From positions 54,389 through 118,388 of the forward strand of contig CAVYBN010000007.1 in the NCBI GenBank assembly GCA_963766795.1: a DNA stretch of 64,000 nt. Reading direction: 5' to 3'. Both the position numbers and the translations under genes were made by a program. The notes beneath the pieces were generated by a model, which had not been told where the DNA came from, did not search any database, and saw nothing but the letters and a program-made list of their open reading frames with translations. Of this stretch, positions 1 to 64,000 are shown in pieces (positions within the stretch are counted from its first letter, which is position 1; every line of letters starts with the position of its first letter). The DNA comes from Candidatus Parcubacteria bacterium. GTDB lineage: Bacteria > Patescibacteriota > Minisyncoccia > Phycocordibacterales > PALSA-1337.

Positions 1-3000
1 ATATAGTCAGGACCGGCGTGCCGGCCAGGTCGGCGCTGTAGCTCATGGGTGTGCCGTTGGCGGAAGTGCCGGAGATCGGCATGTCCACCCAGGTGATCAC
101 GCCTGAATCCTGTGCGAAATTCTCATTGCCCATCTCGAAGTAAGACGCGGAGGTCGAACCGGTATTCCAGTCATATGTGAATGAGCCGTTGCCGAGGTTG
201 AAGCCGCCTTGGAATGTCGAAGTCGAGGTCGTGGCGTCGGCGTTATAGTATCCAGCCGCGATACCGCCGTTGACTCCAAGTTGAAGATACGGCGAAGTCG
301 AAGCGATGCCAAAGAGGCCGTTCGAAGTGATGGTCAAATCCGGCATGGTCGAAGTCGAATACGCGTCGCTCGAAGTGCCGAGATAGAAGTTGCCGCCTTC
401 GGAGCTGAACAGCCAGTGCTTGAGGTTGGCGCCGGCGCCGCTGTCAGTCAGAGCCAATTGACCTTGGAATGTCCCATTGGCGGAAGTCGAAGCTATTTCA
501 AGAGACCAATTCGGAGTGGTGGTGCCGATGCCGACATTGGTTCCATTGTCGTAGATTAAGCTGTTCGCGAATGTGCCGTTGGAGTTCCATTTTGGCAGAT
601 AATTGTTGGTCAATGAAGAGACTGTTGATGAGCCGAGTAGGCCAAGCGAAGAAGTGGCCGACAATGTGTAGCCGCTCAAAGCGTTGCCGAGGAGAAGCTG
701 GCCGTAGTTTGGCGTTGACGACAATCCGGTGCCGCCGGAGGAGATAGCCAGAGCTGAAGCCAGAGACAGTGAATTCGCGGACAATGTGCCGACATTTCCA
801 TTCGTGGCATAAAGATTGGTGGATGAAGCCGTAGTCGCGTAGAAGCTGGTGGTGGTGGCGGCAGTGCCGGTGGCGTTGGTGAAGGTGAAGCTATTCAAAG
901 TGGAAGAGGCGAAGACATACAAGTTCGTCGTCGAAGCAAAGGATGAGCTGATCATCGTCGTTGAAGCGTATGGGAATTGCGAAGCGACTGAAGAAGTCGC
1001 AACAAAGTTCTGTGCCACGACTTGTCCTGCCACTGAAAGCAGTGAGTACGGCGATGTGGTGCCGATGCCGACCGCGCCGTTCTGGATGCCGCCGGAGCCG
1101 TTGGACTGCGCGTAGACGGTCAACAAGGGACTGCTGGCGATAGTGGCCGTATAGCTCTCGGCTACGCCGGCCGCGGCGCTGGATAGCGGCAGATCCACCC
1201 ACGAGACCGTGCCGGCGTCGGTGTCGAAGCTCAAGTTGCCGAGCTGGAGGTTGCTGATGGAAGTCACGCCCGAACCGAACGAATATTGGAGGGCGCCGCC
1301 GCCGACATTGAGCCCGCCGGCGAATGTCGAGGTGGCCGTAGTCGAAGTGGCGTAGAAATCATTGGCCACGACTTCCCCGGCCACCGAGAGCATGTCGTAG
1401 GGCGAAGTCGTGCCGATGCCGACATTGCCGGAGAGATACGAGGTCAAAGCGTTCGGGTCGAACCAGAACTTGGCCGTGGTAGTCGAGGTGTTGCCGATAG
1501 CCAGGATGTCGCTCCCATTCAGGGAATAATTGACGATCTCGCCGGAAACCTGCGAGGTCGTGGTCGCCCACGAGCTCAAGCTTCCGCCGCCGCCGGTGCC
1601 GCAAGCCGCGACGCTGGCCGAAACCGAGCCGTCCGTGCCGACCTGGAGGCATCGGGTCGAAACGCCTGCGAGGCTTTGCAAGACAGTGCTGCCGGAAACG
1701 TTCAAGTTGGTGGTCGAAGCGGTAGTCGCCGTGATCATGGTGGTCGAAGCATAGGCTATTTGCGAAGTCGAAGAAGCGTTGAAACCGTTCTGGAACCAAG
1801 CGATGCCTGTCGTGGCTTGGTCAGTGGCGGCAAAATTGGTCGACGGCGTGAATGGATACGCGAATGTGTCATAGCCTTGCTGTGAACCCCAGTAAGCGGC
1901 GGAAGTCGTGGAGAACGCGGTGATGCCCAAGCTGGAGGTCGCCAATTGCTGCCAGCCGCCGCCCGCGTACGAACCGAGAAGGATACCGGCGGCAGTTGGA
2001 TTGCTAATGCCCGTGCCTCCGCCTGCCGCTGTTAATATTCCGGAGCTGGTGGCATTGAAGGTGAATGAACCGCCTGTGTTGGTGATATATATGCCTGTGG
2101 TGAGGCCGTTATTGGTGGCACCGGTCGTGGTGCCAAGCGTTATGTTCCCTGTCTGCGCCGTTCCGTATGTCTGGGCGATCGTGAGCGAAGTGGTGGCGGA
2201 TTGGAGACAAGTGCCGCCGATGGCGTAGCAGCCGGAGGTGATGTTGTGACCGCCGGCAAAGGTCGAGGTGGCGGTGGTGGTGCCGACGAAGTATCCGGCG
2301 ACGGCGGCATTGCCGAGAGTGGAAGTGCCTTCGACGGAGAGAGCGAAGGTGGGAGACGATGTGCCGATGCCGACATTGGCAATATTGATATAAATATTAG
2401 GTCCCCCACCCGCCAGAGACCAATAGGTCGGGTTACTGCAAGAAGTCCATAATACTCCATCTCCTAAACCAGCTCCAAGACACTTGCTAAAAGAACCTAA
2501 TGAGCCTCCGGAATCAGCCACGGAACCCGAAAGATTAAGTATGTTAGAGACAGTCAGATTGGTGGTCGAGGCATTTACAAATTGAGAGGCTTTCGTGGAG
2601 GTGGCTGTCAAGTACGCGACCGTCGGCGAAGTCGAAGAGATGAACGCGCCGGAATTATTGATGCCGAGCCAGCCTTGGCCGAAGGAGGTCTGGCCGGTGC
2701 CGCCGTACAAAACCCCAATAGATGTCGTGGCCGAGACGACGCCGGAGATCGCTTGGAGCGGTCCGGTCAGAGAGCCGATAACCACAGAACCATTGTTGTT
2801 GACTTCAAACGGCGTGGTCGTACCGTTCGAAGTCGAAGAGCTGATGGCAAACATCGGCGCGGTAGCTGACCAGTTCGGCACGCCGATCGAGAGCGCCGCC
2901 CAAGGAGTCGAGCTTCCGATTCCCACATTGGTTCCGTTGTCGAAGATCAAAGAATTGGTGAAAGTTCCATTGGAGTTCCACTTTGGCAGATAATTATTTG

Positions 3001-3215
3001 TCAGTGAAGAGACGGTTGACGAGCCGAGAAGGCCGAGCGAGCTGGTGGCGGAGAGCGCGTATCCGCTTAGAGCGTTGCCGACCAATAGTTGGCCGTAGTT
3101 CGGCGTTGATGACAATCCCGTGCCGCCACCTGCGGCAGTGAGAATGCCCGAGGTAGTTGCGGACAGAGTAAATGAGCTGCCAGTGTTAGTTATGTATATT
3201 CCAGTTGTGAGCCCG
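1..3215 (-). repeat. Degenerate tandem copies of the repeat modules of the adjacent giant surface-protein gene. Minus-strand translation is protein-like but hops between frames and has no intact ORF. This is either a decayed 3' extension or pseudogenised paralogue, or a repeat-collapse assembly artefact.
   Basis: Blocks ~541-800, ~2040-2230 and ~2940-3130 match 3845-4110 of the giant gene at nucleotide level. Minus-strand translation of 3121-3238, in the frame offset by one from the called ORF, reads TSTGATNNGLTTGIYITNTGSSF.. TGLSSTPNYGQLLVGNALSGY, which matches the internal repeats of the giant protein. The six-frame track shows only short ORFs on either strand here. Confidence 0.5.
2622..2995. 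repeat. Near-identical direct duplicate (~375 bp) of 3472-3845, at an 850 bp period
   Basis: Identical runs are seen by eye (cggtcggcgaagtcgaagagatgaacgcgccggaattattgatgccgagccagcc...). The track ORFs 2595..2993 and 3490..3843 translate identically. Confidence 0.85.
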
Positions 3216-6200
3216 TTATTGGTGGCGCCGGTCGAAGTGCCGAGCCAAATGTTGCCGATCTGGGAAGTTCCGTATGTCTGCGCGATCGTGAGCGAAGTGG
3301 TGGCGGATTGGAGACAAGTGCCACCGATCGAATAGCAACCGCCGGTCAAGTTGAGTCCGTTTGCGAAAGTTGAAGAAGCTGTGGCTGATGTGGCGTTGAA
3401 GATGGAAGCGGAGAGGCCGGCCGGCGAATGTGGAGGTGGCGGTAGTGGAAGTCGAGACGATGTAGTTCACGGTCGGCGAAGTCGAAGAGATGAACGCGCC
3501 GGAATTATTGATGCCGAGCCAGCCTTGGCCGAAGGAGGTCTGGCCGGTGCCGCCGTACAAAACCCCAATAGATGTCGTGGCCGAGACGACGCCGGAGATC
3601 GCTTGGAGCGGTCCGGTCAGAGAGCCGATAACCACAGAACCATTGTTGTTGACTTCAAACGGCGTGGTCGTACCGTTCGAAGTCGAAGAGCTGATGGCAA
3701 ACATCGGCGCGGTAGCTGACCAGTTCGGCACGCCGATCGAGAGCGCCGCCCAAGGAGTCGAGCTTCCGATTCCCACATTGGTTCCGTTGTCGAAGATCAA
3801 AGAATTGGTGAAAGTTCCATTGGAGTTCCACTTTGGCAGATAATTGTTGGTGAGGCTTGAAACCGTTGACGAGCCGAGCAGACCAAGAGAAGAAGTGGCG
3901 CTACAGTGTAATATCCACTCAAAGCGTTGCCGAGGAGAAGCTGGCCGTAGTTTGGCGTATTGAAAGACCGGTGCCGCCGCCGGCCGCAGTGAGAGATTCC
4001 CGAGGTGGTGGCGTTGAAAGCTGAAGGAGCTTCCGGTGTTGGTGATGTATATGCCAGTGGTGAGTCCGTTATTGGTGGCGCCGGTTGAGGTGCCAAGCCA
4101 GATATTCCCCGTCTGCGCCGTTCCGTATGTCTGGGCGAGCGTCATCGAGGTGGTGGCTGACAATATTCCCAAGGACGAAGTCGCGTATTGCGTGTATCCT
4201 CCGACCGCATTGCCGATCAGCAATGACGATGAAGCTATCGAAGTCAGCCCGGTGCCGCCGTAGAGGACGCCGACAGAAGTGGTGGCCGAGACGACGCCGG
4301 CGTTGGCTTGCAAGGGACCGTTCAGCGATGAAGATAGAGTCAACGAATTGGCGCTGACTGAATTCAAAGCACTGGCTCCATTCACCGTCAAGGTTCCGAT
4401 ATTGCCATTAGTCGCGTAAAGGTTAGTTGAAGAAGCTGTGGCCGCGAAGAAATCGGTGGTGGTCGCGGCCGTGCCGGTGGCGTTCACGAAGGTGAAATTC
4501 TGCAGAGTCGAAGAGCCGGTCGAGAGAAGGTTCGGAAATTTCGCCAGACCGCCCACGGTCAGAGTGCCGGTGGCCGTGATGTCCCCGGCCGTCAGGCTTC
4601 CGGAAAAATATCCGTTGCCTTCGACCGTGAGCGGCATGAAGGGCGAGGTCGTGGCGATCCCGAGAAAGCCGAGCGTGGTGTCGAACAGGCTCTGGTAGTC
4701 TCCAAAGACCACATTGCCCTGCGAACCAAGGGAGGTGGAGCTGGCAGCCAAGACGACATTGCCTGAACCATCCGGCCCATATCCTCCTTCTATGTAGACG
4801 GCCCCTCCAAATTCACTGCCTTCTTCACCAACGCCGCCACTGGCGCTTCCGGCATTCCCTCCCAAGAGAGACAGATCACCACCGCCGCCGGCGATGTTGA
4901 AGGCGGCATTGTTAGACGCGTTGCCGCCGTTGCCGCCTTGGATCGTGACCGTGCCTCCCCAGCCGCCATTATTGAAGCCACTCCCGGTAACGACATTCTC
5001 CGAACCGCCGGTGCCGCCGAGGATGTTGACCGGACCGCCTTTGCCGCCGTTGATCTGGCCCGAGCCGGCGTTGGTGCTGACCCCGCCCAAGCCGCCGTTC
5101 AAGATGATCCCGCCGCCAATGCCGGCTATCGGAAAATTGCCGAAAGTGGAATACGAAGTGTTCCCGCCGGTCGCGCCAGTGACCAAGAGCGAAGTGGTGG
5201 CATTGGTGCCGTATTGGGTCGCAACCGACGCTGGTTGCGGGTTATTGATCATCAAGCCGCCGGTCGAGCCGAATAGGTTGAGCGTGAGCGCACCCACGGA
5301 ATTGACGACGGCCGCCAGATAGTCGGTGTTGTCGTACGCGAGATCGAGCTGCGGCACGGCCGAGGAATTGTTCTGGACCGAGAGCTTGGCGTATGGGCTC
5401 GTCGTGCCGATGCCGATATTGTTGGCGTCTTTGGTGGTCGTGCCGAAGACCAGAGTGCTGGTCGAGAAGACATTCGCGCCGTTCGCGCCGTAGAAAGCGG
5501 CCTGGCCGGCCACGCCGGTCTGGACAGAGGATGCGCCGAGCAGACCCAGTGTCGTAGTCGAGACTGACGTCCAATTGGAGCCGTTCCATTGGATCAGGCC
5601 GCCGGTTCCGAGCGATGTCCCGAGGCCGGCCGGAGCGGCGATGGTGGAGGATGAATTGACGAAATAGTTGGCCGAAGTGGTCGAGAAAGCTATGATGCCC
5701 AAGGACGAGGTGGCCATCGAAGAGACCGCGCCGTTGGTTCCGAACAGGATGCCATTCAAAGACGAGGCAAGATTGGTGGCGCCGCTGACCGTGAGCGAAT
5801 TTGCGGATACCGAATTCAAGGCCGACGCTCCATTCACGGTTAATGTTCCGATATTCCCGTTAGTCGCGTAAAGGTTAGTCGAGGAAGCCGTGGCCGCGAA
5901 GAAGCTGGTGGTGGTGGCGGCCGTGCCGGTGGCGTTCGTGAAAGTGAAATTCTGCAGAGTCGAAGAGCCGCTGACAAGGAGATTGCCGAGCGTCGCCAAG
6001 CCGCTCAAGAAAGACTTCTGCGCGTTCGGGTCGAACCAGAATTTGGCCGTGGTGGTGGAAGTGTTGCCGATGGCGATGACGTCGGTCGTGTTGTTGGAAT
6101 AGTTGACCAGTTCGCCGGAGACCTGCGAGGTGGTGGTCGACCACGAGCCGGCCGCGGCGGCGGCTCCGCCGCAACCCAGAGGATTGGCCGCGACCGTGCC

Positions 6201-42202: not shown

Positions 42203-43252
42203 TCAAGAAGCCCGACGGGTGAATATCCAGTATTTATATACAAAAAAGCTGCCGAGCGCAACCAAGCCGGCGGCAATGACTTGAGAGAGGATGTACCACA
42301 AGCCGAAAGCGTCGGTGAAGATGTAAACCAAGAGCGTATTCACGCACAGATTGAAAATCGAAACGCCGAGGTATTTGCCGGCTTGGCGGTGCATGCCGTC
42401 GGTGGCGCGATCTCTGAATGTCCAGAATTTTTGCAGGAAGAAGCTGACTCCGAAAGCGATGATGAAAGCGACCACGGCCGAGGCGAGGTACCACAGGCCG
42501 GCGAATCTCGTGAACGCGTACAGCAAGCCGATATCCACCGCAGCAGCAGTGCCGCCGGAGACGAGGTATCGGAATATCTGCTGGCGATGCGACCATAGGC
42601 CAGCCAATCGCGGCGAGATCTTGCCGAGCCGCAGGCCGAAGTTGTGTGTTTTGGTGGACATGAATGATTTGAGACGATAGCTTGGCGAGCCGGACTTGGC
42701 ATTGAAGATGTAGAATCTCTTAGCTCCGAAGCCTTCTTTGAAATGATTGTGTGAATCATCACTGATCGTTGAAGGACCGAGATCGAGCCAGTGGATGCCC
42801 TTTTCAATCGACCATTTGACCAGTTCGTCATAAAGGCGGTCATTCACGGCATGGTCCCAATAAGAAGGATCGGAGATATTGAACATCAGCAAGGCGTATT
42901 CGCTTGAAACCAAACAATAATTCACACCAACCAATTTACCAGGCTTCGATTCGTTAGCATTCGATCCGCCGCCTTTCAATTCCTCGCCGCGGTCGAACAA
43001 CGAAATCGTCACCACGCTTTCACTAAAAGCTTTTTCAAGGTCTGCGAACCATTCACGGCTTCTTGGCTTGCTTTTCAAGCGTTCCATTGATATTGAATAC
43101 AATGCATAGAAATCTTTCGGAACTGCGCCGATCTTCAAAGTGAATAAATTCTTATAAGATTTCCTGACCAGATTCCGCGTCTTGCCTTCATAAAGACCGA
43201 AGCGCTTTTCAGGATCATTCACGCCTTTCAAATCAAGCGCGTAATTAATCAT
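42203..43252 (-). CDS. FemAB/Acetyltransf_6-like (GNAT-fold) domain fused to a C-terminal GtrA-family 4-TM domain. The start is reassigned to MINYAL.
   Basis: The first 69 called codons are Ser/Arg-rich nonsense overlapping the upstream ORF. The GNAT-like core (WDHAVNDRLYDELVKWSIEKGIHWLDLGPS) is followed by a GtrA signature (VSGGTAAAVDIGLLYAFTRFAGLWYLASAVVAFIIAFGVSFFLQKFWTF). Confidence 0.5.
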   Translation of the reverse strand: MINYALDLKGVNDPEKRFGLYEGKTRNLVRKSYKNLFTLKIGAVPKDFYALYSISMERLKSKPRSREWFADLEKAFSESVVTISLFDRGEELKGGGSNANESKPGKLVGVNYCLVSSEYALLMFNISDPSYWDHAVNDRLYDELVKWSIEKGIHWLDLGPSTISDDSHNHFKEGFGAKRFYIFNAKSGSPSYRLKSFMSTKTHNFGLRLGKISPRLAGLWSHRQQIFRYLVSGGTAAAVDIGLLYAFTRFAGLWYLASAVVAFIIAFGVSFFLQKFWTFRDRATDGMHRQAGKYLGVSIFNLCVNTLLVYIFTDAFGLWYILSQVIAAGLVALGSFFVYKYWIFTRRAS

Positions 43253-43517
43253 TCGAGTTCCCGGATTGAACGGGACTGAAACTGTTGAACTGAACATTCT
43301 TATAGCGGTTCTTGATTGAGTTAATCGCTGATTCGAATTCAACCGGCTTCGCTTCGAATGCCAGCGAATAGAACCATTTGAAACCGCCGGCGAAATATTC
43401 CTTGCCATCGGTGAAGACAGGAATAGCGGAATGGTCGCCATTAACCGGCGCGACGCCATAAGCGTTTTTCAGATAATCGAGCGTCTTCTGCTCTTTAATG
43501 AGGCCAGTGATATGCAT
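43245..43517 (-). CDS. Small protein (90 aa) overlapping the FemAB::GtrA start by 8 nt (ATGATTAA). It may be the detached N-terminal lobe of the FemAB-like domain.
   Basis: Protein-like translation (MHITGLIKEQKTLDYLKNAYGVAPVNGDHSAIPVFTDGKEYFAGGFKWFYSLAFEAK...). Its frame differs by one from the downstream gene. Confidence 0.4.
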   Translation of the reverse strand: MHITGLIKEQKTLDYLKNAYGVAPVNGDHSAIPVFTDGKEYFAGGFKWFYSLAFEAKPVEFESAINSIKNRYKNVQFNSFSPVQSGNSND

Positions 43518-43518
43518 G

Positions 43519-44379
43519 TTATTTCTTCCTTCGAAGCAGTCTTTTAATGGCTAGGTATCGGCGTGATTTGGCTACTTTGCACTTGAATTCAGCCATTGAA
43601 GTAGTCGCAGAAATCGCCATGCGCGGCAATTCCAAAGGATTCACCTGCGAACCATTCGACTGCGGCTCGATGATCTTTTCTTTAACAGTGACCGCCGATT
43701 GGAATCGAAGCGAGGAAACGATCTCAATCGTCTCATTTGAGTACTTGCCATACGGATACGCAAAACAAACAACAGGTTTTCCAGTGATGCCTTCGATCAT
43801 TTGTTTCGATTGCGATATGTCTTTCAACGCGTCTTCCCTGTTCATGTCTCTCAAAATACCGTGCGAATGCCCGTGCGGCATGATCTCGACCAAGCCTCCG
43901 TTCGAAAGCTCTCTGATTTGGTCGATGTCCATGACAGACAGAGAAGAAGCAACGATTGGAGTCGAGCTGCCCGCATTGAGATTGACGGCATCGGCGCTGG
44001 CGGTAGCTGGCAAATCGCCTTTTTTCAAGGTGAATTCTTTTCCGATGTATGCCGTTGAAATAAATATCGTGGCTGGAGTCGAATGCTTTTTGAGTATCGG
44101 CAAGGCTTCATTGAAATTATCCTCATATCCATCATCGAATGTGACTGCGACGGCATTCACTGGCAAAGTACCTGATCTCAATCGTGAGGCGAATTCGGAG
44201 AGCCTCAAGCATTCGCGGCCTGACGATTTCAAGAATGACATTTGTTTTTCAAACTCTTCCGGAGTGACTGTGAATTGCGCGCGATTGTGGCCTATCGAGT
44301 GGTACATCAAGATCACGGGCGCCGGATCGCCGGCTGGCGCGAAAACTGAAATTATTTTCCAGAAGATATTTTTAATCAT
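43519..44379 (-). CDS. Polysaccharide deacetylase (CE4, NodB homology domain)
   Basis: VAVTFDDGYEDNF (motif 1, TFDDG), MPHGHSHGIL (His motif), CFAYPYG. Confidence 0.85.
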   Translation of the reverse strand: MIKNIFWKIISVFAPAGDPAPVILMYHSIGHNRAQFTVTPEEFEKQMSFLKSSGRECLRLSEFASRLRSGTLPVNAVAVTFDDGYEDNFNEALPILKKHSTPATIFISTAYIGKEFTLKKGDLPATASADAVNLNAGSSTPIVASSLSVMDIDQIRELSNGGLVEIMPHGHSHGILRDMNREDALKDISQSKQMIEGITGKPVVCFAYPYGKYSNETIEIVSSLRFQSAVTVKEKIIEPQSNGSQVNPLELPRMAISATTSMAEFKCKVAKSRRYLAIKRLLRRKK

Positions 44380-51368: not shown

Positions 51369-51779
51369 TCACAGATTGGCTGGGAGCGGCGAGTGGGCCG
51401 GTTTTAAATCGACTGTCGGAACCGAGGCTTTCGAATCGGCCATAATCGGCTTCTGTGCAATCACTTGATTCAAGACAACAAACGGCTTGTGAGTCACACC
51501 TGCATTCGAGGCGGGCGAGGCAGAGCTTCCGAAGAGCCGAGGACTGTCCGAGCGAGCAGAGATCGAAGCCTTTAAAGAAGGGTTTGCGTCAGCCGCGCCT
51601 TCTTTGTCATCCCCGCGAAAGCGGGGATCCAGTGTCTTTGTTGTTTGACCCTGGATTCCCGCTTGCGCCTTCGCTTCGCTTCGGCTTGCGGGAATGACAA
51701 CAACATCCTTCGCGGGACTGCTTCGAATCTCTGCCTTCTTCACCGTCGGCTCATGGAACTTGACTATCCCCTCCTCCAC
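51369..51779 (-). CDS. Pro/Ala/Ser-rich low-complexity protein containing a Family-A element in frame. It overlaps the VirD4-like gene end by 29 nt.
   Basis: VIPASRSEAKAQAGIQGQTTKTLDPRFRGDDK, then S/P/A-rich sequence. Confidence 0.3.
   Translation of the reverse strand: MEEGIVKFHEPTVKKAEIRSSPAKDVVVIPASRSEAKAQAGIQGQTTKTLDPRFRGDDKEGAADANPSLKASISARSDSPRLFGSSASPASNAGVTHKPFVVLNQVIAQKPIMADSKASVPTVDLKPAHSPLPANL
51606..51698. repeat. Family-A palindromic element (a variant with a ~25-bp insert in the right arm)
   Basis: gtcatccccgcgaaagcggggatccag ... ctggattcccgcttgcgccttcgcttcgcttcggcttgcgggaatgac. Confidence 0.8.
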
Positions 51780-53031
51780 TTCTGCGCGCGGCTTCGGAGA
51801 ACTGCTCGCGCGAAGCGGCGATGATGTCCGTGAAATACGACGTGCTCGGATGCGCGATCGGCGGCAGAGTCATGGCCGAGAATGGCGGCGAAGTCAGGCC
51901 GTCGATCATCAGCTTCAGGTATATCTGCGCAAAGCCCAGATTGACCAGATCCTCGATCTCGAACTGCGGCGTGAACTCATTCTCGAGCATCTCCGCGTCG
52001 TTGGCACCGATGCGGAAGAGGATCATCGTGCCGACGTTGCCGAAGACCGCCGGCCGCACGAACTCGTCCATCTGCTCGACGTATTGGTGGGCGATGGTCA
52101 GGTTGAGCTTGTATTTGCGGGCTTCGGACAGGATGTCCGCGAATGACGCGTTGGCGAAGTTCTGGAATTCGTCGACGAACAGATAGAAGTTCGGCAGCAT
52201 CTTCATGACGCGGTCCGGCACGTCGGCGCGCGACATCGCCGCCAGGTATATCTTGGTCACCAGAAGTCCCCCGAGGAGCTTCATGTTCTCGTCGCCGATC
52301 TTGCCCTTGGACAGGTTGATGATCATGATCTTCTTCTTGTCCATGGCCTCGCGGAAATCGAACGACGAATGCGGCTGGCCGATCATGTTCCTGATCAGCG
52401 GGTTGGCCGTGAATTGTCCGACCTTATTCTGGATGGCCGGCACGGCCTCGGCGGCCTGACGCTCGGTGTAGCTGGCGAACTCCTTGGTCCAGAAAGCTTT
52501 CACTGAAGGGTCTTTTATGTATGAGACGATGTCATTCCTGTATGCCTTGTCCGAGAGCATCCTATTCACGCCCAAAAGAGTCGAGCCCGGTGCTTCGAGG
52601 AGCGCCAGGAGAGTATTGGTCAGAATGTATTCCATGCGAGCCGACCAAGCGTCTACCCAGATCTTCTTGAAAGTGCTCATCAGGCCGGAGACGACCAGAT
52701 GGCGCTTGTCGGGATCGATCGATTCGAGGACGTTGAATGAGATCGGGTATTCGGTGTCGAAAGGCGCGATGTAAATGACATCGCGGATGCGGGACTGCGG
52801 CACATATTCCATGAGGAGGTCGGCGGTCTTGCCGTGCGGGTCGATGAAGCACATGCCCTCGCCGTTCTGGATATCCTGGACGGCCATGTTCTCGAGCAAG
52901 GTGGATTTGCCCATGCCGGTCTTGCCGATGACATAGACGTGGCGGGTGCGATCCTTGGCCTTGATGCCGAACTTCACCCGCTTGTTGCGGGCATCCGTCT
53001 CGGCGAAATATGTGATCTTATTCTCGTCCAT
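51751..53031 (-). CDS. Soluble VirD4/TraD/TraG-like (TrwB_AAD_bind or HerA/FtsK-like) P-loop ATPase
   Basis: Walker A VIGKTGMGKST, Walker B LFVDEFQNF, and a coupling-protein-like AHQYVEQM...GNVGTMILFRIG block. No N-terminal TM segment. Confidence 0.65.
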   Translation of the reverse strand: MDENKITYFAETDARNKRVKFGIKAKDRTRHVYVIGKTGMGKSTLLENMAVQDIQNGEGMCFIDPHGKTADLLMEYVPQSRIRDVIYIAPFDTEYPISFNVLESIDPDKRHLVVSGLMSTFKKIWVDAWSARMEYILTNTLLALLEAPGSTLLGVNRMLSDKAYRNDIVSYIKDPSVKAFWTKEFASYTERQAAEAVPAIQNKVGQFTANPLIRNMIGQPHSSFDFREAMDKKKIMIINLSKGKIGDENMKLLGGLLVTKIYLAAMSRADVPDRVMKMLPNFYLFVDEFQNFANASFADILSEARKYKLNLTIAHQYVEQMDEFVRPAVFGNVGTMILFRIGANDAEMLENEFTPQFEIEDLVNLGFAQIYLKLMIDGLTSPPFSAMTLPPIAHPSTSYFTDIIAASREQFSEAARRSGGGDSQVP

Positions 53032-57122: not shown

Positions 57123-58490
57123 ATGGAACAGCCGAAACAGACCGTCATATATGTGACCCGCGAGATCGAGCGAGCCATGGGAATGGCCCCGAACGAGCAT
57201 TACCGCATCGTCGCCAACCGCACGCCTTACGGCGAAACCATTAAAAAGCAATACCCCGATTTCGTCACGCTCGTCGAAAGCCCGACGCCCAAGCTCCTTG
57301 GCACCGGCGAACTTCTGGACCATCCAAAAACTGCCGCTGTCTATGAAGAGATCGCTAATTCTTTTATCACCCCCGCGAAGGCAACGGTCCAGGATCGATC
57401 TGCTGATTCTCCTGTCATCCCCGCGAAAGCGGGGATCCAGGGTCAGACCACTGGAAATGGTAATACACTGGATTCCCGTTTTCACGGGAATGACAAAACG
57501 ATTCCCAATTTCCTCGTCTTCAAGAACACCGCGCGCATCGAGCCGATTGCGCACGCGCACGGCTGGAAGCTCGTGAATCCTCTGGCGTCGCTCTCGGAGC
57601 AAGTCGAGAACAAGATCAGCCAAGTCGCGTGGCTCGAAAATTCAGCCGAATACTATCTGCCGAAGCATCAGGTAGGACCGCTCAAGAGGATGACTTGGAC
57701 CGGCGAGCCCTTCGTCCTCCAATGGGGCCACGGTCACACCGGCGACGGCACCATCCTCGTCAATTCGCAGGCAGAGCTCGACAAGTGGAAGGCGCGATTC
57801 CCCTATCGCATGACGCGCGTGAGCGCTCTCGTGAGCGGCCCTTCATTCACGGTCAACGCACTGGTCGCCGGCGACGATGTCCTCATCGGCAACCCGAGCT
57901 ATCAGATCACCGGCATGGCGCCGTTCACCGACAGCCGCTTCGCCACCGTCGGCAATGACTGGAGCGCGGTCCGCAACATCCTCTCCGAAGCCGAGCTGCG
58001 TTCGATCGAGAATCTGGCCAAAGACATCGGCATGCGTCTCAAAGACAGCGGTTGGCGCGGCCTCTATGGCGTGGACATCATGCGCGACGACGAACGCGGC
58101 CGTATCTTCCTCATCGAAGTCAATGCCCGCCAGCCCGCTTCCACGCCTTTCGAGTCATTCTTACAGGAATCAGAGCGCGTCAAGGGAGCTGCCGGTTTGA
58201 CAATATTTGAAGCTCATTTGAAGGCCTTGCTCGGCGAAGCCATCACCGAACCTTTGATCAAGATCAAAGACGGTTCGCAGATCATCCAGCGCGTCACCAA
58301 TGCCGTCAGGTCAGTGCCTGCCAACGCAGCCAGTGCTCTTGAATCAGCCGGCTATCAAGTCGTTTCTTACGCCAACACTGAACTGAACGCCGACCTCCTG
58401 CGCATTCAGTCCATGAATGGCATCATGGCTGGACATGATGTGTTCAATGAGAAAGGAAAGGAGATCGTCAAGATCGTTTCAAGTAAATAA
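57123..58490 (+). CDS. ATP-grasp family ligase with an in-frame Family-A insertion near the N-terminus
   Basis: RIFLIEVNARQP(A) is the ATP-grasp C-terminal catalytic motif. Insertion VIPAKAGIQGQTTGNGNTLDSRFHGNDK. The start is reassigned from 57006 to the ATG at 57123 because the upstream codons lie in the Family-D element. Confidence 0.65.
   Translation: MEQPKQTVIYVTREIERAMGMAPNEHYRIVANRTPYGETIKKQYPDFVTLVESPTPKLLGTGELLDHPKTAAVYEEIANSFITPAKATVQDRSADSPVIPAKAGIQGQTTGNGNTLDSRFHGNDKTIPNFLVFKNTARIEPIAHAHGWKLVNPLASLSEQVENKISQVAWLENSAEYYLPKHQVGPLKRMTWTGEPFVLQWGHGHTGDGTILVNSQAELDKWKARFPYRMTRVSALVSGPSFTVNALVAGDDVLIGNPSYQITGMAPFTDSRFATVGNDWSAVRNILSEAELRSIENLAKDIGMRLKDSGWRGLYGVDIMRDDERGRIFLIEVNARQPASTPFESFLQESERVKGAAGLTIFEAHLKALLGEAITEPLIKIKDGSQIIQRVTNAVRSVPANAASALESAGYQVVSYANTELNADLLRIQSMNGIMAGHDVFNEKGKEIVKIVSSK
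57368..57494. repeat. Family-A palindromic element with an extra partial left arm (57368-57395)
   Basis: cacccccgcgaaggcaacggtccagg...gtcatccccgcgaaagcggggatccag ... ctggattcccgttttcacgggaatgac. Confidence 0.85.
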
Positions 58491-58559
58491 AGCCATTCTT
58501 CATTCGCAGATTCGCCATTCGTAGCATTCGCATTGGATTCGTAGATTAGCATTATATAT

Positions 58560-59393
58560 ATGAACACCAAGACCCTCACACCGCGCGCTCTGTCAGTCAT
58601 CGACCAGTACCTTCATTTCAAGGTCGGCGCCGGCCTGTCTGCCGGCAGACAGGCCGTCTGCTCCGTTCCCTATTTCAATAACAAGACGGTCAGAGCCAGA
58701 GCTTCGCTTCGCGCCGAGATCGGCAAGGGCAGTCCCAAGGATATTTACGACGAGGCGCAAGCCATGCTAATCAAACAACATGTTTCGATCGACACACTTG
58801 CCGATGAATCATTGAAAAAGATGCTCGCTGATAATAACATCGGCATCGATTGTTCAGGTTTCGCTTATTATGTCCTCAATGCTGAAAGCGCTGAAGCTGG
58901 CAAAGGGCCGCTTGATAAGCACATCTCATTCGTTAATTGCAAAGGGATCCTCGGCAAGATGCGCGCAAAGTTCAGGCCGGCCGAGAATTGCGACGTCACT
59001 ACGCTCGCAGACGATAAGAACAGCCGGATCATTCCTTTAAATGAAACTTCACCTGGAGACATTGTCACTATGATTGGCGATCAATCGTCCTCTCCTCTAA
59101 TCTCCAATCTCCAATCTCCAATCTCTAGTGAACGTGATCATATTTTAATCATCCACCAAGTCGACTATCAGAACTTCTCGGCCTTCAAGCTCTATTATTC
59201 GCACGCTGTCGCTTATCCCGAGGATGGGCTTTATGGCAGCGGAGTAAAGCAAGGAACCGTTGAGATCACTGACTCCAAGAAAACGTTAACCGAGCAGGAA
59301 TGGATCGAGAACGGCAAGAGCGGCGATGCCAACCGCATCTATTTGCGTGCATTGAAATCGAAGACGGAATTACGTCGTTTGAAGTGGCTCTAA
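58560..59393 (+). CDS. NlpC/P60 (C40)-like cysteine peptidase candidate
   Basis: GIDCSGFAYYVLN (catalytic-Cys context), PGDIVTM and HILIIHQV (His) in Cys...His order. It contains a (ctccaat)n microsatellite-encoded SPLISNLQSPISS. Confidence 0.45.
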   Translation: MNTKTLTPRALSVIDQYLHFKVGAGLSAGRQAVCSVPYFNNKTVRARASLRAEIGKGSPKDIYDEAQAMLIKQHVSIDTLADESLKKMLADNNIGIDCSGFAYYVLNAESAEAGKGPLDKHISFVNCKGILGKMRAKFRPAENCDVTTLADDKNSRIIPLNETSPGDIVTMIGDQSSSPLISNLQSPISSERDHILIIHQVDYQNFSAFKLYYSHAVAYPEDGLYGSGVKQGTVEITDSKKTLTEQEWIENGKSGDANRIYLRALKSKTELRRLKWL

Positions 59394-59414
59394 CATCGTG
59401 GTATTGTTTGAGGA

Positions 59415-60542
59415 ATGATAAGCATCCTCCAAGGCACGGCCGACCTGGCCTATATCCTCGGTTTTGCGCTGGTCGGCGCCGTCATAGCTTTCCTGTGGGC
59501 GCCGCTCCTTACCAAAGCACTGTACCGATTCAAGGTCATCAAAGCTCCCAAGACCGAGCTTGTGGCCCTCGGTTCGCAGGCATACAAAGCCAACACGCCG
59601 GTCATGGGCGGCTTGCTCGTCATCATCACGGTCGCGCTCGTCACCTACCTCTTCAACTGGTCGCGCTCATTCACGTACGTGCCGATCGGCGTGATGCTCA
59701 TCTCCGCGGCTTTGGGCGCCGTCGACGACCTCATGAATGTCTACGGCGTCGAACGGCGTTCGCGCAAATTCGGCCATGTCCTGACGCTTATCCGAGTCCA
59801 TCATGACTGGAAGATGCGCGTCTGGTACGCGCTCACCCTGCCCTGGACGGCTTTCAAGCGCCTGTCGGTCTGGTTCGGCTCGCGGCCCGGCAAGGGCGTC
59901 TTCGTGCATGAGAAGCTCATCCTGCAATTCATCGCCGGAGCCATCACCGCCTGGTGGGTCTACGAGAAGCTCGGGCCGGCCTGGCACTTCATCTACTTCT
60001 CGTTCGGCTACTCCGTCAATGCCGGCTGGCTGATCGTGCCGATCATGGTCCTGGTCGTGATGTTCACCGCTAATGCCGTCAATATCGCCGATGGCATGGA
60101 CGGCCTCTCCGGCGGCATGCTCATCACCACCTTCAGCGCGCTCACATTCCTGTCATGGATCAACGGCTTCGGCGAGATCGCCATCCTGAATGCCACCACA
60201 GTGGGCGCTCTGGCGGCTTACACCTATTTCAACATCAAGCCGGCGCGCTTCATGATGGGCGACATTGGCTCACTGGGCCTTGGTGCGCTCCTGGCTGTGA
60301 ATGCCCTAGCCATCGGCGAGCTAGGCTCGCTCTTCTTCTTGGGCTTCATGTTCTATATCGAGGCCTTTTCGGTCATCATCCAGGTCGGCTCGCGCTACGC
60401 ATTCGGCCGCAAGGTCTTCCGCATGGCGCCTCTTCATCACCACTTCGAGCTCAAAGGCTGGAGCGAGGAGAAGACCGTCATGCGCTTCTGGGTCATCCAT
60501 TTCATCTTCGTGGTCTTCGGATTCTGGTTGGCGCTCCACTAA
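59415..60542 (+). CDS. mraY: Phospho-N-acetylmuramoyl-pentapeptide transferase MraY
   Basis: NTPVMGGLLVI, AVDDLMNV, NAVNIADGMDGL, FMGDIGSLGLGALLA and PLHHHFEL conserved MraY blocks. Ten TM helices. Confidence 0.85.
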   Translation: MISILQGTADLAYILGFALVGAVIAFLWAPLLTKALYRFKVIKAPKTELVALGSQAYKANTPVMGGLLVIITVALVTYLFNWSRSFTYVPIGVMLISAALGAVDDLMNVYGVERRSRKFGHVLTLIRVHHDWKMRVWYALTLPWTAFKRLSVWFGSRPGKGVFVHEKLILQFIAGAITAWWVYEKLGPAWHFIYFSFGYSVNAGWLIVPIMVLVVMFTANAVNIADGMDGLSGGMLITTFSALTFLSWINGFGEIAILNATTVGALAAYTYFNIKPARFMMGDIGSLGLGALLAVNALAIGELGSLFFLGFMFYIEAFSVIIQVGSRYAFGRKVFRMAPLHHHFELKGWSEEKTVMRFWVIHFIFVVFGFWLALH

Positions 60543-60643
60543 AAGTATAAAGGTATAAAAGAAGAAAGGTATAAAGGTATAATCGCAACATCGCTTCTCG
60601 CATACTTTTATACTTAAATACCTTAATACTTTTATACTTATTC

Positions 60644-61327
60644 ATGACTTACCTTCACTGGGACGAAACAACAATCATCGACTTCTCCGAGAAGAATATT
60701 TCCGCCATGTACGACTGTGGCTATGTTTTCACGCGTATCGGTAAAGGAGTGATGCAACAGACGCGCTCGGTGCGCATCGATTTGAGCAAGTTCGAATTGA
60801 CGAGCGAGAATCGGCGCATCCTAAAAAAGGCTGCCCTTGATGGATTTGAGACGATTTCAACACCTTGGGCACATTACGATCTGCGTGTCGGTAAGCTAGC
60901 TAAGGATTTTTATACTGCCAAATTTGGTCCGAATATCATGAGCGCCTTTAAAGTGAAAGAAATGATGACTAATCCTGCGCGCAACAATTTTAATGAAGTG
61001 CTCATATTCTCAAGCGATTCAACGGCGATTGGTTGGACTATCTGTTACAAAAATACCGAGCTCCTTCATTATTCGTATCCCTTCTATGATTTAAATGTGT
61101 CGTCAAAAGATATGGGACTTGGCATGATGATCCGCGCGATTCAATATGCAAGGGATTCTGACGTGAAATACGCCTACCTCGGATCCCTTCAGCGCCCCGG
61201 CGACACCTATAAGCTCCAATTCGCAGGCCTGGAATGGTTCGACGGCGGGCCTGATGGTTCGAATAAGTGGTCGACAGATATTGATAGAGCGAAAAGAATC
61301 CTATCATCTGCTACTCTTGAATCCTGA
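60644..61327 (+). CDS. ATE_C-domain (arginyl/leucyl-tRNA--protein transferase, Bpt/Ate1-like) aminoacyl-tRNA-dependent transferase candidate
   Basis: LIFSSDSTAIGWTICYKNTELLHYSYPFYD...KYAYLGSLQRPGDTYKLQFAGLEWFDG matches the ATE_C pattern (..D.lsdglS.VY.fydP....SLG...yvYLGY......YK..F.P.E). There is no Cys-rich ATE_N. Confidence 0.5.
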   Translation: MTYLHWDETTIIDFSEKNISAMYDCGYVFTRIGKGVMQQTRSVRIDLSKFELTSENRRILKKAALDGFETISTPWAHYDLRVGKLAKDFYTAKFGPNIMSAFKVKEMMTNPARNNFNEVLIFSSDSTAIGWTICYKNTELLHYSYPFYDLNVSSKDMGLGMMIRAIQYARDSDVKYAYLGSLQRPGDTYKLQFAGLEWFDGGPDGSNKWSTDIDRAKRILSSATLES

Positions 61328-61330
61328 ATC

Positions 61331-62761
61331 ATGAATCTTGAATCTTCTCAAAACCTGCCTGAACACATCCACGTCATCGGCATTTGCGGCGTGGCAACGA
61401 GCGCTTTAGCCATAGCTTTCCACAAGGCCGGCGTCAAAGTCACCGGCTCCGACAAAGGCTTCTTCCCGCCGGTCTCGACCGAGCTTGAAAAAGCCGGCAT
61501 CCCCTTCTACGCCGGCTGGCATCCTGAAAAAATCGCAGAGAATGGCATGCCTGATCTCATCATCGCCGGTGCCAGCGGTACGAGCTTGTCCAATCCAGAG
61601 ATCATGTACACGAAGGAAAAAGGCATTTCTCTTCTTTCGTTCGCAGAAGCCATCGGAAAATATGTCGTAAGAAAAAATTCCGTCGTTTGCACTGGAACTT
61701 GGGGCAAGACGACGATTTCGGCCTTGCTTTCATTTATCTTGTCGGAAGCCGGCATGAGGCCGAGCTATTTCACCGGCGGTGTTTCGCTATCACATCCGAC
61801 AGGGGTTATTTCCGATTCAGACTGGAGCGTCGTCGAAGGAGACGAATATCAAGTCTCGATCTCCGACCACCGCCCAAAATTCGTCTATTATGCCCCAACA
61901 CATCTTCTGTTAACTTCAGTCTCCTGGGACCATGCGGACCTGTATCCGACTGAAAAGAGTTATTTCGATACATTCGAAAAGCTCGTTAAAGAAGTCCCAA
62001 AAAATGGCTGCATCGTGGCTTGTATTGACAACGAAGGCGTTCAAAGAACATTAAAGAGTGCGAACGATTTGACCACAGGCCGCAAGGTCGTAAAATATGG
62101 CCGAAATGAATCAGCCGATTATTCATATCATTCACTGACACAAACAGAGAATGGCCTGCGTTTCCAGATAAGCAATGGCAATGAATGCTATGAGATAGTC
62201 TCTCCGATGCTCGGCGGCTTCAATGCGCAGAATATCACGGCGGCTTTCGCCATGGCACGCACGATCGGAATACCAGCCGACAAGATCATCGCCTCCATCA
62301 AGAACTTCAGAGGCATCAAGCGCCGCTTTGAGAAACGATTTGAAGGCGAGATCACTGTCTTCGATTGCCATGCTCCCACACCGGAAAAAGCTTCTGCCGT
62401 CCTGAAAGAATTACGCGCGATCTATAGTGGCAAGATCATCGCCATCTTTGAGCCGAACATCGGTGGCCGTGAACGCGAAGCAGCCGCTAAGTATTCGAAT
62501 GCTTTCAAAGATGCCGACACTGTGCTCATCCCGCGTCTGACAAAGCTGAAAGTTGCCGAAAATGATTCGAATCAACCGATGGAAGGTATTGAATTAGCCA
62601 CGGTCATTTCAAAGACTCACAAAGACTGTCATTGCATCGAAGACGACGCCGAGCTCGTTGAAACGGCCGTATCTCAAACAAAAAAAGGAGACATCATCGT
62701 CTTCCTGGGCTCGCATGGATTCAGAGGAATGATAGAAGAAACGGTGAAGAGATTGGCTTGA
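61331..62761 (+). CDS. mpl: Mur-ligase family enzyme closest to Mpl (UDP-MurNAc:L-Ala-gamma-D-Glu-meso-DAP ligase). MurC cannot be excluded.
   Basis: HIHVIGICGVATSALAIAFHKAGVKVTGSDKGFFPPVSTELEKAGIPFYAGWHPEKI and GDEYQVSISDHRPKFVYYAPTHLLLTSVSWDHADLY align block for block with E. coli Mpl ([72 protein letters not shown]). Confidence 0.75.
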   Translation: MNLESSQNLPEHIHVIGICGVATSALAIAFHKAGVKVTGSDKGFFPPVSTELEKAGIPFYAGWHPEKIAENGMPDLIIAGASGTSLSNPEIMYTKEKGISLLSFAEAIGKYVVRKNSVVCTGTWGKTTISALLSFILSEAGMRPSYFTGGVSLSHPTGVISDSDWSVVEGDEYQVSISDHRPKFVYYAPTHLLLTSVSWDHADLYPTEKSYFDTFEKLVKEVPKNGCIVACIDNEGVQRTLKSANDLTTGRKVVKYGRNESADYSYHSLTQTENGLRFQISNGNECYEIVSPMLGGFNAQNITAAFAMARTIGIPADKIIASIKNFRGIKRRFEKRFEGEITVFDCHAPTPEKASAVLKELRAIYSGKIIAIFEPNIGGREREAAAKYSNAFKDADTVLIPRLTKLKVAENDSNQPMEGIELATVISKTHKDCHCIEDDAELVETAVSQTKKGDIIVFLGSHGFRGMIEETVKRLA

Positions 62762-62768
62762 TTCCTTT

Positions 62769-62852
62769 GTCATTCCCGCGAAAGCGGGAATCCAGGGTAC
62801 TACCACAAACGCCCGTAGTCATACACTGGACCCCCGCTTTCGCGGGGGTGAC
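62769..62852. repeat. Family-A palindromic element, intergenic (convergent gene ends)
   Basis: gtcattcccgcgaaagcgggaatccag ... ctggacccccgctttcgcgggggtgac. Confidence 0.85.
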
Positions 62853-62860
62853 AAAGTTGT

Positions 62861-63058
62861 CTATTTTCCTTCATCGACGATCACAGTTTTGACCTCATTG
62901 TCCGCCGTGATCTCCTTGACCAGGAGCGTCATACCGCAGTGGTTGCATTCGATGACCATGCCGGCCGCGATATTCGGATAGCGCGAAAGGTCGAGGACAT
63001 TCTTGCATTCCGGGCAGACGCAGACCAGCTTTGATGATTCGGACCTTTGTTGGATCAT
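62861..63058 (-). CDS. Small zinc-ribbon protein with a LysW-like fold (65 aa)
   Basis: CPECKNVLDLSRYPNIAAGMVIECNHCGMTLLVKEITADNE is a CxxC-18-CxxC ribbon like the LysW/ArgW carriers. The C-terminus ends ...VDEGK rather than a terminal Glu. Confidence 0.35.
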   Translation of the reverse strand: MIQQRSESSKLVCVCPECKNVLDLSRYPNIAAGMVIECNHCGMTLLVKEITADNEVKTVIVDEGK

Positions 63059-63097: not shown

Positions 63098-64000
63098 ATG
63101 AATAAGTCAGCAAAAGACGCTTCGGATGGTGCGAAGGCCGCTCCTATTACGCCGCTTGAAGCCTATCCCAAGCTGGCAAAAGCCATAGGCGTCAATCAAT
63201 TGTTCTTCAAGCGCGAGGACCTGCATCCTTACGGCTCTCACAAAGGCCGCTCCATTCCGGTCATGATCGACCATTATTTGAAGGCCGGTGAGCGCCGATT
63301 CGCCATCTCTTCGTCTGGAAACGCGGCATTGGCGGCGGCACTTTATGTTGCTGTCATTCCCGCAAAAGCGGGAATCCAGGGTCTAGCTGCTGAAAACAAT
63401 CCGATCAGCCTCGATATCTTCATCGGCCAGCATGCCGCGCCGCACAAAGCGCAACGATTGAAAGAACTCGCTGACGAGCATATCCGCGTCCTCATCAAAG
63501 AGCGGCCATTGCAAGCCTTGACGCAGGCCGTGAATGAGAGCGCGCGGAGTTTGAGGCAATCGACTGACGATCTGGCTTTGATCGGTTATGAATCTTTGGC
63601 ACAGGAATTAGCGGCAGCAACAGCACGGAGGTCGGACCTCCGTAGGTCGGACCTAAGTATCTTCATCGGCACTTCTTCCGGCACCACGGCTCAAGCTTTG
63701 GCTGCATATTTCTTAAAAGAAAAGCTCCCCATCCAAATCCACATCGTCCAGACTTCTTCATGCCATCCTTTGGCGGACGCATTCGAATCGTACGATGGAC
63801 CAGACGAAGCTTCACTGGCTGATGCCATCGTTGACATGACCGCGCGGCGCAAAGAAGCTCTGATCCCGCTCATCAAAAAGAGCGGCGGCCGTGCCTGGGT
63901 CGCAACTAATGACGACATCAAAGCCGCACAGGAACTGACGCTCAAGAATACTGGCTTGGAGATATCCACTAACAGCGCGTTATCAGTAGCTGGAGCGATG
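63098..64000 (+). CDS. Fold-type-II PLP-dependent enzyme (threonine synthase/dehydratase-like), partial: it runs off the window end. It contains a Family-A half-element in frame.
   Basis: FFKREDLHPYGSHKGRS (PLP-lysine context) and SSSGNAALAAAL. The frame is open from the ATG at 63098 to the window edge. Insertion VIPAKAGIQG at 63353-63380. Confidence 0.5.
   Translation, partial: MNKSAKDASDGAKAAPITPLEAYPKLAKAIGVNQLFFKREDLHPYGSHKGRSIPVMIDHYLKAGERRFAISSSGNAALAAALYVAVIPAKAGIQGLAAENNPISLDIFIGQHAAPHKAQRLKELADEHIRVLIKERPLQALTQAVNESARSLRQSTDDLALIGYESLAQELAAATARRSDLRRSDLSIFIGTSSGTTAQALAAYFLKEKLPIQIHIVQTSSCHPLADAFESYDGPDEASLADAIVDMTARRKEALIPLIKKSGGRAWVATNDDIKAAQELTLKNTGLEISTNSALSVAGAM

Follow-up and report, generated by a model that had tools for sequence, protein, structure and literature searches.

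A seven-gene cluster around mraY

We analyzed a gene cluster of predicted peptidoglycan function in a 64,000-nucleotide stretch of Candidatus Parcubacteria bacterium (contig CAVYBN010000007.1; G000:C7:54389–118388, where G000 denotes this genome). This whole stretch is referred to here as the window. The assembly comprises 916 kb in 18 contigs, and is 84.6% complete with 1.3% contamination. Orthologs of proteins encoded in the window carry the names Candidatus Taylorbacteria, Parcubacteria, Paceibacterota or Minisyncoccia; the host therefore belongs to the Patescibacteria (candidate phyla radiation, CPR). An initial annotation, made from the sequence alone, had described five genes here, encoding an ATP-grasp ligase, an NlpC/P60-like peptidase, MraY, an ATE_C-domain protein and an Mpl-like Mur ligase. 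All five lie where it put them, and its domain calls hold in profile searches and fold comparison. These open reading frames (ORFs) run head to tail on the + strand, separated by gaps of 4 to 102 bases, with a divergent rsmI gene upstream. Two further conserved members, overlooked in the initial annotation, are a LysW-like zinc-ribbon ORF and a gene for a pyridoxal phosphate (PLP)-dependent enzyme, giving seven genes in all. The features are:

57123..58490, + strand: ATP-grasp ligase, 455 amino acids (aa); Pfam ATP-grasp_3, 27.9 bits (cut-off 23.2)
58560..59393, + strand: NlpC/P60-like cysteine hydrolase, predicted cytoplasmic, 277 aa; fold match, invariant Cys/His
59415..60542, + strand: MraY (phospho-MurNAc-peptide transferase), 375 aa; Glycos_transf_4, 84.9 bits
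60644..61327, + strand: ATE/Bpt-like aminoacyl-tRNA transferase homolog, 227 aa; ATE_C, 22.9 bits; lacks the Cys-rich ATE_N motif
61331..62761, + strand: Mpl-like UDP-MurNAc ligase, 476 aa; all three Mur ligase domains
62861..63058, - strand: LysW-like zinc-ribbon protein, 65 aa; four Cys, C-terminal Lys (...VVDEGK)
63098..64000, continuing 63 bases beyond the window end, + strand: PLP-dependent enzyme of PALP fold, threonine-synthase-like, 321 aa
57417..57440, no strand assigned: palindromic repeat core ATCCCCGCGAAAGCGGGGATCCAG; other copies at 62772 and 63356

To place the cluster in its phylum, we surveyed an even sample of 401 Patescibacteria genomes. The 382 without the ATE_C-like gene include an unpublished genome, G154; none of our claims rests on it. 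For synteny, ∼20 kb was fetched around each of 17 homologs from 8 GTDB families and searched with a profile of each member. At least seven Patescibacteria families keep the module, which occurs in two gene orders. Families f1, f36 and f109 have all seven genes in the order of the window; in f50 and f73 the order is ATE_C, ligase, NlpC/P60, MraY, PLP, ATP-grasp, often with murE directly upstream. MraY, which in the window scores 163 bits against TIGR00445 over residues 159–370 (below that model's cut-off of 192), belongs to the module in all families examined. The ATE_C-like gene lies immediately upstream of the ligase gene in all seven families that carry it, even where the copies are only 28% identical. 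In the relatives examined, the small zinc-ribbon gene and the PALP gene always come after the ligase gene. On one Candidatus Taylorbacteria contig (L010, JAQBRD010000026.1), a gene for a Peripla_BP_6 amino-acid-binding protein and another ORF lie between the ligase and LysW-like genes.

Two kinds of gene fusion were found. G308 encodes a single 688-aa protein in which ATE_C (residues 8–224) is joined to the ligase (225–685), and G088 and G152 encode proteins of 695–697 aa in which the ligase (2–444) is followed by NlpC/P60 (451–691) at the C-terminus. The ATE_C-like gene occurs in 19 of the 401 genomes, as does the NlpC/P60-like gene, and 18 genomes have both. Its constant place upstream of the ligase gene in 7/7 families, and its fusion to the ligase in G308, mark the ATE_C-like gene as something other than a stray N-end-rule Bpt. 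A canonical Bpt unrelated to cell-wall genes was one of two results that the initial annotation had said would count against it; the other, a ligase firmly within MurC, was not obtained either (see below).

The cluster ligase and the absence of MurD

The module occurs only in genomes without MurD, and in our sample this exclusion was complete. A canonical MurD (TIGR01087 match with E ≤ 1e-40) was found in 0/19 genomes carrying the ATE_C-like gene versus 316/382 others, and the module genome G053 also lacks it. Among 12 module genomes that are 95–100% complete (G053 included), the best match to the MurD model scored at most 90.6 bits and came from MurE, MurF or the module ligase. Exactly three Mur-type ligases, namely MurE, MurF and the module ligase, are encoded in G018, as they are in G308, a closed genome. 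Glutamate racemase, called with Pfam Asp_Glu_race, was present in 1 of 19 module genomes and 170 of 382 others; the exception, G281, has an intact module. Of the 15 module genomes within a 251-genome sample, 13 have MurE. MurE and MurF were both typed in G018, G192, G308, G088 and G000, and MurE in G064.

In G000 itself, profile searches recovered MurA, MurB, MurE, MurF and Ddl; neither glutamate racemase nor alanine racemase had a match in this 84.6%-complete genome. We considered whether alanine racemase loss is tied to the module and rejected the idea, since the gene is present in three of five complete module genomes. A short MurE was likewise rejected as a sign of off-nucleotide assembly: ∼70 N-terminal model positions are missing with or without the module. 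In nearly all sampled Patescibacteria the TIGR01085 alignment of MurE begins at about position 57–77, the N-terminal part being missing or unrecognizable phylum-wide. The initial annotation had envisaged a non-canonical route in reduced genomes lacking a full murC–F set. The absence of a canonical MurD from 19/19 ATE_C-positive genomes bears this out; in G000 the shortfall concerns MurD, present only in degenerate form, whereas MurE, MurF, Ddl, MurA and MurB are all kept.

We then come to the ligase, the only MurC/Mpl-type ligase in G000, which the initial annotation had judged nearer to Mpl (the murein-tripeptide recycling ligase) than to MurC. Tree and active-site residues agree with that judgment, hidden Markov model (HMM) scores do not, and matches to solved structures give a tie. 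NCBIfam scores were 244.1 bits for MurC (TIGR01082, cut-off 335.1) and 200.3 for Mpl (TIGR01081, cut-off 388.7). The best PDB sequence matches were 3hn7 (133 bits), MurC 6cau (129), MurC 1gqq (125.5) and Mpl 3eag (118). The first of these was deposited under the name MurC; we take it to be the Mpl of P. arcticus. A maximum-likelihood tree (IQ-TREE, LG+C20) was built from 7 Mpl and 11 MurC, taken from annotated records, and 29 Patescibacteria ligases, with MurD, MurE and MurF as root. Eight module ligases formed one clade (support 100/98), placed outside the reference MurC and sister to the 7 Mpl (Mpl clade 100/100; joint node 99/94). Module ligases and Mpl together nested within a Patescibacteria-only radiation (98/98), separate from reference MurC. 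Constraining Mpl and reference MurC to one clade was rejected (delta lnL 78, approximately unbiased (AU) test p = 4e-14).

Residues of the amino acid site point the same way. Tyr346 and His376 of HiMurC bind the amino acid (PMC3060825), and we equated them with EcMurC Y352 and H382 by a +6 numbering offset of our own. The MurC L-Ala-site motifs are DDY(A/G)HHPTE, with Y352, and FQPH(R/T)xSRT, with H382. These two residues are kept in 21/22 and 22/22 other Patescibacteria MurC, versus 0/8 and 1/8 in the module clade, and are absent from Mpl. In the G000 ligase they are replaced by H347 and N376. The two motifs read DCHAPTPEK / FEPNIGGRE in G000, DDLxHSPxK / FEPNTGNRK in f36, and RDLAHSPVK / FExFSSSK in f50 and f73; Mpl, in parallel, reads DDFAHHPTA / LEPRSNTK. 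A loop, (S/T)AFFDKRSK, and the Tyr preceding it have been described as specific to Mpl (PMC3060825), and the module ligase has both a loop of this type (same length, D-x-R-P-K-F) and the Tyr, in DEY, as do Patescibacteria MurC from MurD-containing genomes. Judging from the tree and the amino acid site, the ligase belongs with Mpl and is predicted to lack the MurC L-Ala pocket. In vitro, Mpl uses L-Ala-D-Glu weakly and the tripeptide well, and accepts tri- to pentapeptides (PMC3060825, Table 3).

In the same tree, proteobacterial Mpl nests inside the Patescibacteria MurC radiation, with which it shares the loop insertion, the reference sampling being small. This hints that the recycling ligase Mpl may descend from a Patescibacteria-type MurC.

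The accompanying proteins

The ATE_C-like protein falls slightly under the cut-off (25 bits) of Pfam ATE_C (PF04377) and reaches 36 bits (E = 4e-9) against the bacterial arginyltransferase model NF002346, whose cut-off is 170. It lies under every curated Bpt cut-off. Its family has 1671 homologs of ∼60% identity, and many orthologs carry a precomputed PF04377 match. No conserved Cys of the N-terminal Cys-rich ATE_N region was seen in a 37-sequence alignment (A3). The earlier call of an ATE_C-domain protein is thus sound in that bacterial arginyl/leucyl transferases are the best family match, and less so in that all cut-offs are missed and the ATE_N cysteines are lacking. Some homologs carry the Fem-related domain PF13480. 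A genome-wide search of G000 with the FemAB profile (PF02388) left the ATE_C-like gene unmatched and gave one weak match, to an unrelated ORF (window 42203–43459, - strand). That ORF encodes a 418-aa protein with a Fem-related GNAT domain (Acetyltransf_6) and a C-terminal GtrA-like membrane domain, and adjoins a polysaccharide deacetylase gene (43519–44379, - strand).

The ATP-grasp protein belongs to a family of 975 homologs, nearly all from Patescibacteria, that is an orphan at the sequence level; its profile had no match among PDB sequences. An AF2 model (mean predicted local distance difference test score, pLDDT, 89) shows a generic three-domain ATP-grasp fold. The best Foldseek matches were PurK, PurT, an L-amino-acid ligase and a Streptomyces peptide ligase (8ynd), at 9–14% identity and a template modeling (TM) score of ∼0.6. 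The suggestion in the initial annotation that this might be a D-Ala-D-Ala ligase fails: the sole match in G000 to the Ddl C-terminal domain (PF07478, 157.8 bits) is another gene, on contig C5, where the canonical Ddl lies at G000:C5:30238–30852. The Ddl_archaea model NF053643 gave only 15 bits on the ATP-grasp protein.

For the 277-aa protein (58560–59393), no Pfam model matched, including the NlpC/P60 model PF00877, and Foldseek found nothing in the PDB at E ≤ 0.001 with its AF2 model (pLDDT 86). The fold was seen only by exhaustive comparison with VIA-align, in which the top 21 rows were all NlpC/P60 peptidases, among them MepS (Z 10.4; root-mean-square deviation 3.3, 127 aligned), CwlO (9.8) and LytE (9.1). 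Three residues are invariant in the family, namely Cys98 (within DCSG), His194 and His215; for Cys98 and His194 this was judged from 39 orthologs. The NlpC/P60-like call is therefore upheld by the papain-like fold together with the invariant Cys98/His194. All 582 homologs are annotated 'hypothetical'. Profiles from the module-family alignments A1, A2 and A3 gave no usable match to PDB sequences.

The LysW-like protein scores 18 bits against Zn_ribbon_LysW (PF21344; cut-off 27). Its four Cys and C-terminal Lys are invariant, with the tail ...VVDEGK in f1, f36 and f109; the acidic tail ending in Glu that characterizes PF21344 is thus replaced by one ending in an invariant Lys. An ortholog occupies the same position in f36, f109 and f8, and divergent LysW-like ORFs with tails ...EK or ...QK lie within the rearranged modules of f50 and f73. 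A predicted complex of the ATP-grasp and LysW-like proteins (score 0.25, mark 0.32) is evidence neither way. The PLP enzyme is a module member in f1, f36, f109, f8, f50 and f73. The full-length protein (L060:3268–4233) scores 125.5 bits against Pfam PALP, and its nearest solved sequences are threonine synthases, at ∼45 bits.

Copies of the repeat ATCCCCGCGAAAGCGGGGATCCAG in the window lie at 57417–57440, at 62772–62795 (intergenic, past the ligase gene) and at 63356–63379 (in frame in the PLP gene). Across the two strands of the 916-kb genome it has 99 matches when up to 3 mismatches are allowed, and it translates as ...VIPAKAGIQG.... The in-frame insertions in the ATP-grasp (∼50 aa) and PLP genes form linker regions absent from most orthologs. 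About 4 kb upstream of the cluster, a gene for a VirD4/TraG-type coupling-protein ATPase (window 51751–53031, - strand) adjoins, on a relative's contig, RelB/ParE toxin-antitoxin genes. Elsewhere in G000, a 501-aa ORF near the rsmH-PBP-murF cluster (L007:12180–13685, G000:C4; PBP, penicillin-binding protein) matches the TIGR-Tas RNA-guided endonuclease model with 116 bits, above cut-off, and also IS110. At G000:C9:47413–47487, ARAGORN called a tRNA whose anticodon has four bases (gatc) and whose identity is undetermined.

Models for stem-peptide synthesis

Genomes that lack MurD have no usual means of lengthening UDP-MurNAc-L-Ala, yet they keep MurE and MurF. Most simply, the ligase would then attach a peptide made beforehand, L-Ala-(D-)Glu or longer. 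The explanation that we favor, with about even confidence for and against it, is that these genes form a module, conserved in Patescibacteria, which takes the place of the MurD step and usually also of the D-Glu supply by glutamate racemase, the peptide being made off the nucleotide. Two or more of the first stem-peptide residues would be assembled in this way, and the Mpl-like ligase would join the preformed peptide to UDP-MurNAc in one step, bypassing MurD; MurE, MurF and MraY would then act as usual. Aminoacyl-tRNA transferases only acylate amines, with N-terminal Asp or Glu as the targets in the ATE/Bpt family. The ATE/Bpt-like enzyme may thus take an amino acid from its tRNA, Ala in the simplest case, and transfer it to the free alpha-amine of a Glu-type acceptor, which would yield L-Ala-Glu. 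Since such a transfer would provide the needed dipeptide, it would explain the tie of the ATE_C-like gene to the ligase gene. More speculatively, the ATP-grasp, PLP, LysW-like and NlpC/P60 proteins may load the acceptor, convert it (e.g. to the D form) and release it, with cleavage of a gamma-glutamyl-type amide as the release step. Comparative genomics largely bears out the interpretation offered in the initial annotation, the chemistry of each step being what we infer from the proteins involved.

It is conceivable, but we think quite improbable, that the L-Ala-D-Glu portion of the stem peptide is built on the LysW-like protein as a carrier. The ATP-grasp enzyme would tether the gamma-carboxyl of Glu to the epsilon-amine of the invariant C-terminal Lys, the PLP enzyme would invert the free alpha-center of the tethered Glu, and the ATE/Bpt-like enzyme would add L-Ala from Ala-tRNA to its alpha-amine. 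The Mpl-like ligase would then join UDP-MurNAc to what would be a tripeptide mimic, L-Ala-gamma-D-Glu-Lys(carrier). The order of the fusions, ATE_C to ligase and ligase to NlpC/P60, is consistent with consecutive steps of such a scheme.

Several observations weigh against a MurD-replacing module, or against parts of it. G000 has a degenerate MurD-like gene (G000:C7:120226–121566), 2.2 kb past the window end and behind an IS1595 transposase. It scores 92.9 + 40.8 bits against TIGR01087 (cut-off 212), and its P-loop reads GPCGKAT; no Mur_ligase_M Pfam match and no DH of the N..DH motif were found, and five other module genomes encode no homolog of the protein. Partial modules also occur: G053 lacks ATE_C, and G056 has ATE_C, ligase and MraY without the other members, with no NlpC/P60-like gene in the genome and no ATP-grasp or PLP member in 20 kb around the ligase. 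Therefore, none of the accessory genes is strictly required. As for the PLP enzyme, its resemblance is to threonine synthases rather than known racemases. As to the ligase, its profile score is higher for MurC than for Mpl, with both under cut-off. The exact sisterhood with Mpl is not firm, as a constraint grouping the module clade with its Patescibacteria neighbors to the exclusion of Mpl was borderline (AU p = 0.050), and the reference set was small (11 MurC, 7 Mpl, every Mpl proteobacterial). The Mpl-type loop and Tyr also occur in Patescibacteria MurC from MurD-containing genomes and therefore probably mark ancestry rather than function. Finally, the 19 ATE_C-positive genomes represent 7 families, so raw counts overstate independence.

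The MurD-like gene was seen only in the lineage of G000 and its closest relatives. In locus L005, on G000:C7 just beyond the window end, it lies at 2227–3567, with the IS1595-family transposase (582–1505) between it and the PLP gene.

A serious though rather unlikely alternative is that the cluster serves salvage, as one branch of the initial annotation proposed. An episymbiont would import stem-peptide fragments, its host's or its own; the NlpC/P60 enzyme would trim the gamma-D-Glu-diamino-acid bond, and the ligase would re-attach L-Ala-D-Glu or the tripeptide to UDP-MurNAc. D-Glu synthesis would not be needed, and MurD and MurI would be dispensable, in keeping with their absence. Recycling of murein peptides is known to involve both cytoplasmic NlpC/P60 (YkfC) and Mpl, and amino-acid synthesis is generally missing from small Patescibacteria genomes. 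The affinity of the ligase to Mpl fits this, as does the fold of the 277-aa protein, which is that of gamma-D-Glu-diamino-acid endopeptidases (e.g. 2evr, 3m1u). Yet the ATP-grasp ligase, tRNA transferase homolog and PLP enzyme imply synthesis, and the first two are linked to the ligase as tightly as the peptidase is. No peptide or muropeptide transporter was a conserved member in the neighborhoods compared, and retention of MurE means that the tripeptide cannot be the sole substrate.

The ligase might instead be an ordinary MurC that adds L-Ala, with the ATP-grasp enzyme as a non-homologous MurD, the PLP enzyme supplying the D-amino acid, the ATE_C-like protein acting as a FemX-like branch transferase and NlpC/P60 serving turnover. 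ATP-grasp and Mur ligases share acyl-phosphate chemistry, HMM scores prefer MurC, and no other MurC-type enzyme exists in module genomes; the GNAT fold is common to ATE and Fem transferases, and PF13480 appears in some homologs. We regard this arrangement as a serious rival too, but an unlikely one. It is in the module clade specifically that the MurC residues of the L-Ala site have been replaced, and the fusions join ATE_C and NlpC/P60, not ATP-grasp, to the ligase. G056 lacks MurD, and its ligase has neither ATP-grasp nor PLP partners nearby nor an NlpC/P60-like gene in the genome. The FemAB model, moreover, misses the ATE_C-like gene. That a normal murC-mraY pair merely has an N-end-rule Bpt and unconnected housekeeping genes as neighbors appears extremely improbable. 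Bacterial arginyl/leucyl transferases are indeed the best family matches of the ATE_C-like protein, but all curated Bpt cut-offs are missed and the ATE_N cysteines are absent. Chance would also have to account for linkage across seven families despite rearrangement, two kinds of fusion, near-perfect co-occurrence and complete exclusion of MurD.

The favored reading, a module that replaces the MurD step, can be set against known systems. Like Mpl, the module ligase is a three-domain Mur ligase, in the sister clade, with a loop insertion of Mpl type and the Tyr and without the L-Ala-site Tyr/His of MurC; its partner is a cytoplasmic enzyme of NlpC/P60 type, as YkfC is that of Mpl in recycling. 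Unlike Mpl, it falls under the Mpl cut-off (200 versus 389 bits), occurs in genomes without MurD, and is embedded among genes for MraY, a tRNA-transferase homolog, ATP-grasp, PLP and LysW-like proteins. As it is the only MurC/Mpl-type ligase, it is predicted to be essential, unlike the accessory Mpl.

The ATE_C-like protein shares with FemX/MurM and Ate1/Bpt/Aat the GNAT-type aminoacyl-tRNA transferase fold family, and its similarity to Bpt is significant (E = 4e-9), whereas the ATE_N Cys motif and any FemAB match are lacking and all cut-offs are missed. We know of no coupling or fusion to a Mur ligase described for any of these families. As in LysW/LysX systems, a gene for a small four-Cys zinc-ribbon protein lies beside an ATP-grasp ligase gene. 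The module protein ends in an invariant Lys rather than the Glu of LysW (EDWGE tail), however, and is a candidate carrier only; the ATP-grasp enzyme is PurK/PurT/amino-acid-ligase-like, not RimK/LysX-like, and LysZ, LysY, LysJ and LysK genes are missing. Glutathionylspermidine synthetase/amidase likewise brings together an ATP-grasp amide synthetase and an amidase of CHAP/NlpC-P60 type, and Gsp amidase was among the fold matches of the 277-aa protein (Z 6.3). In the module, by contrast, the genes are separate and translationally coupled, and context and substrates are unrelated.

To our knowledge, the cytoplasmic Mur pathway (MurC, D, E, F) is regarded as near-universal in wall-bearing bacteria. 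It is also an antibiotic target. The sole alternative for the D-Glu step in the literature that we searched is MurD2/MurL of Xanthomonas, in which MurD2 is a recognizable MurD paralog and MurL an ATP-to-AMP epimerase without known domains (PMC8788868). Most module genomes lack any MurD-type enzyme, and the components are entirely different. We also tried MurD2/MurL as an analogy for G000 and found it unsupported, given that MurL is an AMP-forming enzyme without known domains (PMC8788868) and that the G000 MurD-like protein lacks homologs in the five other module genomes. Searches covering Patescibacteria/CPR with peptidoglycan, Mpl, MurD, arginyl-tRNA and LysW returned no description of such a module.

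A whole group of Patescibacteria lineages, including some with closed single-contig genomes, has no MurD and almost never a glutamate racemase, and carries instead a seven-gene set around an Mpl-like ligase. If our reading is correct, this set would constitute a second MurD-independent route to the peptidoglycan precursor, and the first link of an ATE/Bpt-type tRNA transferase with synthesis of the main-chain stem peptide. It would also assign a function to four large 'hypothetical' families, of 582 to 1671 members each, and may help to explain where Mpl, the recycling enzyme, came from.

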